Shown here piece by piece: positions 32,112 through 32,215 of a stretch of 35,391 bases of DNA. Under the pieces are notes generated by a model, which ran no database searches, had not been told where the DNA came from, and saw nothing but the letters and a program-made list of their open reading frames with translations. Location of the stretch: the IMG/VR virus record IMGVR_UViG_2778261298_000003; one strand, given 5' to 3'. A program made the position numbers and the translations under genes. This DNA comes from a virus (taxonomy: Duplodnaviria > Heunggongvirae > Uroviricota > Caudoviricetes). Every line of letters begins with the position of its first letter. Within the stretch, counting starts at the first letter, position 1.

Positions 32112-32153
32112 AAGCACAAAACCCGCTCATCAGCGGGTTTTCTACTTTTTCTT
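32112..32153. terminator. Strong hairpin with flanking A/T runs downstream of Q (candidate tR'-like late terminator, bidirectional in form)
   Basis: Stem acccgct/agcgggt with loop catc; T-rich tracts on both sides. Confidence 0.4.
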
Positions 32154-32186
32154 AACGTCGGGTATACAAAGCCCATCGTTGAAAAA

Positions 32187-32215
32187 ATTTTATCCATATT
32201 TTTTGAAAAATGCAA
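32187..32215 (-). promoter_or_regulatory. Candidate late promoter (PR'-like) immediately downstream of Q
   Basis: Minus-strand TTGCAT, 17-nt spacer, TAAAAT; about 30 bp past the Q stop and about 50 nt upstream of the hairpin at 32112-32153. Confidence 0.3.

Follow-up and report, generated by a model that had tools for sequence, protein, structure and literature searches.

In bacteriophage lambda, the binding site of the late antiterminator Q sits between the -35 and the -10 of the late promoter PR'. A -35-like TTGACT in the lambda paused complex is occupied by sigma region 4 during Q loading, and the lambda 6S RNA is 194 nucleotides (nt) long. At the lambda pR' promoter, 6 nt separate the -10 from the start, a -10-like region is present, and the polymerase pauses 16-17 base pairs (bp) from the start (PMC7876045). 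The DNA site of lambda Q, 13 bp long, lies upstream of the pause element; from this adjacent site Q loads onto the paused complex, and the tip of the Q arm contacts sigma region 4 (PMC9388147). Q proteins fall into three families without mutual sequence similarity, referred to as Q-lambda (PF03589), Q21 (PF06530) and Q82 (PF06323) (PMC9388147). The window analyzed here, 35,391 nt of DNA recorded as the virus IMGVR_UViG_2778261298_000003 in IMG/VR, consists of the Qin cryptic prophage of E. coli K-12 and its surroundings. Directly downstream of the Qin antiterminator gene ydfT (quuQ), on the minus strand, lies what is very probably the late-control cassette of a Q antiterminator of the lambda family, a hitherto unannotated PR'-qut-tR'. 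Full-text literature searches by coordinates and by quuQ, ydfT and "Qin prophage" found no description of a Qin PR'.

The resemblance to lambda is most apparent around the predicted transcription start. Lambda reads TTGACT-17 nt-TAAATT-TGACTC-AACGATGGG, and Qin reads TTGCAT-17 nt-TAAAAT-TTTTTC-AACGATGGG; the geometry and the nine bases from +1 are identical. In Qin, the six nucleotides TTTTTC separate the -10 from AACGATGGG, which begins at position 32180 of the window, and the -35 follows the quuQ stop codon by 31 nt. The composite motif TANNNT-N6-AACGAT has a single occurrence in the 35-kb window, at the predicted promoter, where 0.23 occurrences are expected over the whole window and both strands. 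This unique composite motif, the lambda PR' register and the conservation throughout the family together raise the promoter above chance. A consensus scan chose an overlapping combination, TTTGCA-18-TAAAAT (32216-32187, 9/12 matches), but base 32216 varies in relatives whereas TTGCAT at the 17-nt spacing is invariant, which favors TTGCAT-17 over the choice of the scanner. An earlier note on this DNA had proposed a sigma70 promoter at this place, directly downstream of Q on the minus strand, and at the level of sequence the proposal stands, as TTGCAT-17-TAAAAT aligns with PR' of lambda and phi80 and is invariant among relatives.

The late promoter of phi80 provides a second point of reference. 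Its GenBank record (JX871397) annotates a pR' -35 of TTGCAT, a protein-binding site TCGCGGA for gp17 (Q) located 2 nt past the -35, a -10 of TAGATT, and a terminator at ~+46 to +74. Qin and phi80 share a long-form lambda-family Q (36.5% identity), the identical -35, the 17-nt spacer, and a terminator within the first ~80 nt. They differ in the pause element, which in phi80 is AACGCT and is found 7 nt after the -10, and in the Q-site half of the spacer, which is TCGCGGA in phi80 and TTTCAAA in Qin. With the phi80 annotation as the positional anchor, TTTCAAA (32208-32202) is by position the equivalent of the phi80 Q site in the Qin spacer. By manual count, the Qin spacer, where Q would bind, is identical to that of lambda at 11/17 positions and to that of phi80 at 11/17 positions. 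Lambda, phi80 and Qin differ in the upstream half of the spacer and share the downstream half, AAAA..TGGnTA. The divergence of phi80 and Qin at the Q site is what a difference in Q specificity would lead one to expect, and we infer that the arrangement would suit a family whose Qs each read an upstream spacer subsite of their own. The late promoter of P22 gene 23 is likewise of the lambda type: its AACGAT keeps the register, and its short leader ends in a terminator at ~+30 to +60; it differs in that gp23 is a short lambda-like Q and in that the promoter is almost identical to that of lambda rather than to that of Qin. Judged by these comparisons, the Qin cassette most resembles phi80 in its layout and lambda in its core sequence.

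The antiterminator itself belongs to the same family as lambda Q. The 250-amino-acid QuuQ matches PF03589 (E = 3.6e-54), and a Pfam scan with a cut-off of E <= 0.01 detected no Q family besides this one, the sole other match being a DnaJ zinc finger (CXXCXGXG, residues 148-193). Its best solved relative is lambda Q (PDB 7ubm, E = 4.6e-36), and the N-terminal region is well conserved. As a member of PF03589, QuuQ is properly compared to lambda, P22 and phi80. The phages 21 and 82, which had been suggested as comparators, are consequently not suitable, as their Qs belong to PF06530 and PF06323. QuuQ is a long form that has ~40 residues more than lambda Q in its zinc-ribbon arm (residues ~113-190), resulting in four CXXCXGXG repeats, and this arm probably binds two zinc ions. 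Comparable long-form Qs are found in phi80, Evi, SI5 and others, and the inserts in the former three are of other lengths but at the same place. A search of close relatives with QuuQ yielded only proteins that are 94-100% identical; diverse Q relatives were obtained by scanning with the Q proteins of Evi and EhrS59 and by a tblastn spread search.

The predicted transcript encounters an intrinsic terminator before the lysis genes, as in lambda. The terminator hairpin, which together with its U-tract covers +40 to +70, has a GC core (CCCGCU/AGCGGG, 32137-32122) that is lengthened by four A-U pairs and followed by GUGCUUU. The folding energy is -16.2 kcal/mol (z = -5.2) for the 33-nt terminator segment and -26.2 kcal/mol (z = -5.6) for the 67-nt RNA between 32180 and 32114, the latter with 0/200 shuffles equally stable. 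Terminator-like sites number 8 in the 3 kb scanned, compared to 2.9 expected. The use of this terminator is indicated by Term-seq of MG1655, which maps an RNA 3' end to 1,642,356(-), equivalent to 32114 in the window (Adams et al. 2021, supplementary file 1). This 3' end is classified as "orphan" and is present in at least two condition lists, with scores of 103,591 and 55,368 (Adams et al. 2021). The flanking sequence in the Term-seq table sets it at the C of GGGUUUUGUGC, 8 nt past the stem, as intrinsic termination would give. Combined with the predicted start at 32180, the mapped end would define a leader RNA of 67 nt, such that termination is at ~+67 in Qin and near +190 in lambda. The nearest upstream 3' ends on the minus strand are found at 1,644,572 and 1,645,082 (hokD) (Adams et al. 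2021). As there are none nearer, the RNA ending at 32114 probably begins close by, and little read-in is expected. The strong hairpin with a T-run that had been placed about 50 nt beyond the promoter is thus present and stable, although it begins 45 nt past the -10 and its T-run is interrupted.

The cassette is widespread, and its limits are sharp. It was matched in 1,815/5,426 complete E. coli genomes, about a third. In a nucleotide search of phage genomes, the homology covers the 3' end of Q and continues across the terminator. It ends with the hairpin (query 1-183) in SfV, mEp460, Ayreon, Lys8385Vzw and 15 Stx2c-converting phages, and extends into the cspF/cspB region in 2H10, Tritos, HannyBb and PhiR42_1. 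The hairpin carries a terminator annotation in the SfV and Ayreon records. Among 25 distinct Qin-type variants, the sequence from the -35 to +17 is nearly invariant, the spacer included, and +18 to +39 varies freely; the GC stem persists with changes in the loop, and past the U-tract the divergence is total. A comparison of the sequences downstream of Q from 14 diverse members of the Q-lambda family revealed a -10 followed after 5-7 nt by AACGAT-GGG (or AACGCT/AAGGAT) in lambda, P22, SI5, Evi, PHB10, SEN34, YeP2 and phi80, and AACGAT is in the Qin register also in P22, SI5, Evi, PHB10 and SEN34. Most of these eight phages, but not lambda, have a terminator within ~+30 to +80. By this pattern of conservation, Q, the promoter/pause site and the terminator behave as a portable module.

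Several of the phages that carry this module are live, among them 2H10, SfV, mEp460 and Ayreon. The gene order in phage 2H10 is Q, cspF(-), cspB, holin and lysin, the same as in Qin. In the isolated phages 2H10, Tritos, HannyBb and PhiR42_1, too, the cspF/cspB pair separates the terminator from the holin gene; this pair, which distinguishes Qin from lambda, is therefore a native insert of a functional lineage and not a product of decay in K-12. Late transcription in 2H10-type phages has to cross cspF antisense. The Stx2c-converting phages harbor a Qin-type Q-PR'-tR' block in which Q is 94% identical and the DNA is ~83% identical. In one of these (LC727876.1, 14.7-19.5 kb), the cassette is followed by a lipoprotein-like open reading frame, a DNA methylase gene, tRNA-Met, tRNA-Arg, and the stx2 A/B genes ~3.2 kb downstream. 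The PR'-qut-tR' arrangement envisaged in the earlier note is consistent with every sequence feature that was tested, that is, the Q family, the register of AACGATGGG, a terminator with a mapped 3' end, the lysis genes downstream, and the layout of 2H10.

By homology to lambda, the cassette would operate as follows. Sigma70 RNA polymerase would start at ~32180 from the PR'-like TTGCAT-17-TAAAAT, and sigma region 2 would then re-bind the -10-like AACGAT at +1 to +6, causing a promoter-proximal pause at ~+16/17. Without Q, transcription would stop at the hairpin and U-tract and yield the 67-nt leader, the counterpart of lambda 6S RNA, of which the 3' end at 32114 is itself mapped by Term-seq. Once made, QuuQ would bind the DNA of the promoter spacer and load onto the paused complex. 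The QuuQ-modified polymerase would ignore this and later terminators, and would proceed antisense through ynfS/cspF, then through cspB, the terminator at 30796-30815, ynfU (antisense), essQ, rrrQ and rzpQ.

There are several points that weigh against this interpretation of the locus. The number of promoter-like sites is near chance (8 in 3 kb, compared to 6.1 expected), the -35 TTGCAT fits the consensus at just 3/6 positions, and the activity of the Qin PR' promoter in K-12 is a prediction from sequence. The -35-like TTGACT found just upstream of the lambda pause element is replaced by TTTTTT in K-12 Qin and by TTTTYC in relatives. Given this replacement and the ~40 extra residues in the zinc arm of QuuQ, the details of Q loading may differ from those in lambda, and the enlarged arm and the missing TTGACT-like site for sigma region 4 may be linked. 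Also, the U-tract of K-12 is the shortest among the cassette variants (GGG-UUUUGUGC, compared to GGGUUUUUGUGC or GGGUUUUUUUGUGCC), and the K-12 terminator may therefore be leakier. The weak -35 and a promoter activity that is predicted from sequence would also suit a simpler role for the locus, in which the hairpin mainly ends the ydfU-ydfT transcript and blocks convergent cspF/ynfS transcription, with the promoter-like hexamers inactive in K-12. Such a role would be in keeping with the symmetry of the hairpin, which is terminator-like on the plus strand too (-14.0 kcal/mol, z = -6.8), and a Term-seq 3' end alone leaves the origin of the RNA unspecified. Nevertheless, it is very unlikely that this is all the locus does. 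A mere terminator fails to explain AACGATGGG in the lambda register and the family-wide conservation, SfV, mEp460 and the Stx2c phages have the hairpin but no cspF, no plus-strand 3' end is present at the hairpin in the Term-seq lists (Adams et al. 2021), and the upstream minus-strand transcripts have already ended at the two sites given above. It is extremely improbable that promoter-like and terminator-like sequences became juxtaposed by chance, or that the region is to be explained by a 51-amino-acid open reading frame at 32060-32215. Promoter-like sites are indeed as common as in shuffled sequence, and the reading frame does span the region, but the window holds the composite motif just once, there is homology to the late promoters of lambda, P22 and phi80, and the 3' end is mapped. 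The reading frame itself was rejected as a candidate: it has no Pfam match, crosses the terminator, and its homology is lost right past the terminator in relatives.

An additional function for the 67-nt RNA, as a trans-acting or sponge RNA like StxS is for Stx phages, would add to the PR'-qut-tR' cassette rather than replace it. The likeness is to StxS, the PR'-tR' leader of Stx phages, and to IsrK of Gifsy-1, short constitutive RNAs that stem from an antitermination-controlled late promoter and end at tR'. These precedents, the prominence of the Term-seq 3' end, and the layout of the leader, in which the A-rich AAGAAAAAGUAGAAAA links a 5' stem to a U-tailed terminator, speak in favor of such a function. 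So does a re-analysis of Hfq RIL-seq data, in which a node named "cspF.ydfT.IGR" has 70 chimeric fragments and two partners, is always first, and has a small RNA (sRNA) score of 0.0024 (Bar et al. 2021). The partner medians of this node (72 interactions; 0.950294) coincide with the average of the rows for ArcZ and the uhpT 3' untranslated region (uhpT-3'UTR), both of them hubs. However, the node (31826-32246) is unstranded and could represent either the PR' leader (minus strand) or the ynfS/cspF 3' region (plus strand), which lies within the same intergenic region, and both its sRNA score and its invariable first position in the chimeras are target-like. RNAduplex pairings of ArcZ, whether with the leader or with the whole intergenic region, are long-loop duplexes that are no better than those with shuffled sequence. 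A search of 32108-32205 against Rfam detected no homology to StxS or IsrK in sequence or structure, the best matches being 15-18 bits compared to gathering thresholds of 41-68 (isrK, 16.6 compared to 50). As +18 to +39 also varies freely among relatives, a trans-acting function of this RNA is quite unlikely.

The 5' end of the leader is of interest in its own right. Taken alone, the Qin 5' stem is weak (-5.8 kcal/mol, z = -1.2). When 18 diverse leaders are aligned with MAFFT without structural guidance, +1 to +5 pair with a YGUU segment in 87.8% of cells, compared to 28-52% in slid controls. The pair between positions 4 and 24 is GC in 10, AU in 7 and GU in 1 of these leaders and is unpaired in 0, and in one sequence A1-U has changed to G1-C. 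The copy of the pause element AACG[A] pairs with [U]CGUU, AACA.. pairs with UGUU, and one GAUGAU variant has ..CGUC. Of the representatives, 18/18 have a helix of >=4 bp with its anchor at +1, and other anchors give 11-89%. RNAalifold predicted no consensus structure for the 18 leaders, and the stem emerges only with the pairs named explicitly. This result, the weakness of the lone Qin stem and the small number of independent covariation events make the conserved 5' stem suggestive only. It seems unlikely, taking both as a linked pair, that the leader is a constitutive, as yet unannotated Hfq-associated sponge or target-mimic RNA akin to StxS and that a 5' stem has been selected across the leaders of the lambda-Q family. 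If true, the 5' stem could shield the 5' end of the late transcript or play a part once Q has loaded.

The 501 nt around the cassette are 100% identical to MG1655, and coordinates in NC_000913.3 equal the window coordinate + 1,610,242. The features of the cassette and its neighboring genes are listed in the table. According to RefSeq, the order of genes in Qin is relBE, hokD, rem, ydfU, ydfT, ynfS and cspF (opposite strand), cspB, ynfU (opposite strand), essQ, ydfR, rrrQ, rzpQ and cspI. The lysis genes essQ, rrrQ and rzpQ are on the same strand as the cassette, 1.8-3 kb downstream. No morphogenesis genes are found in the Qin annotation examined, which reaches ynfN only; beyond ynfN, Qin is not known to hold more than remnants. 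Of the genes that had been expected to be read from the late promoter, cspB and the holin gene are thus in place on the same strand, but ynfS, cspF and ynfU would be read antisense, and no morphogenesis genes are annotated as far as ynfN.

Table. Predicted and annotated features of the Qin late-control region, in window coordinates
Feature	Position	Strand	Basis or remark
ydfT/quuQ	32247-32999	minus	stop codon 32249-32247; antitermination protein in RefSeq
Predicted PR' -35, TTGCAT	32215-32210	minus	17 nt before the -10; positional counterpart of lambda TTGACT; same as annotated phi80 pR' -35
Promoter spacer TTTTCAAAAAATATGGA, 17 nt	32209-32193	minus	expected location of the Q-binding element, putative
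Predicted PR' -10, TAAAAT (TAAGAT in many relatives)	32192-32187	minus	sequence, relatives
Predicted +1 (A at 32180) and sigma70-dependent pause element AACGAT (+1 to +6), then GGG	32180-32175	minus	identity to lambda and register
Possible 5'-terminal leader stem-loop (AACG.UGGG ... CCCG.CGUU)	32180-32154	minus	minimum-free-energy and centroid folds of the 67-nt RNA
tR'-like intrinsic terminator hairpin AAAACCCGCU-GAUG-AGCGGGUUUU, 10-bp stem	32141-32118 (+40 to +63)	minus	fold, conservation, Term-seq
U-tract UUUUGUGCUUU	32121-32111	minus	mapped RNA 3' end inside, at 32114
cspB	31097-31312	minus	RefSeq
Holin gene essQ	30128-30343	minus	RefSeq; rrrQ and rzpQ beyond

The sequence between the terminator and the lysis genes contains further signals. 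A second orphan 3' end, present in one condition list, maps to 1,642,188(-), or 31946 in the window; it is located 168 nt past the terminator, antisense to ynfS, after a small AT-rich hairpin CUGCUUAUUAUAUUAUUAGCAG. It could result from read-through of the terminator or from a separate promoter, TAAACA-16-TATATT (31990-31963). The cspB leader and gene (31081-31473, minus) match the cspA thermoregulator of Rfam (RF01766) with 158.8 bits, compared to a gathering threshold of 78, and cspF has merely a partial match of 14 bits. Term-seq 3' ends around cspB are found at 1,641,634 and ~1,641,225. Between cspB and ynfU/essQ lies a strong bidirectional terminator, AAACCCGC-UCAG-GCGGGUUU, at 30796-30815. 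A plus-strand Term-seq 3' end is located at 1,641,060 (window 30818), and the cspB transcripts stop earlier, at ~1,641,225. Weak sub-threshold Rfam matches (isrK and Trp leader) are present around this cspB-essQ terminator region (30796-30815; 30982-30984, minus). On the other side of the cassette, the table cited for putative Rho termination regions includes a plus-strand site antisense to ydfT, at 1,643,015, or ~32773 in the window (Adams et al. 2021, supplementary file 2).

The cassette is a textbook element that was correctly called, and it leaves the current understanding of late gene control unchanged. With it, one "orphan" Term-seq 3' end of E. coli K-12 finds an explanation, and Qin gains a late-operon control region that can be annotated, with PR', pause element and tR'. 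For the lambda-type mechanism of Q loading it provides a natural variant, which has the same pause element but no TTGACT-like site for sigma region 4, and which is served by a Q with a doubled zinc-binding arm. As the cassette is found in about a third of E. coli genomes, in plaque-forming phages, and upstream of stx2c, its strength, the leakiness of its terminator and the specificity of its Q bear on the expression of toxin and lysis genes.

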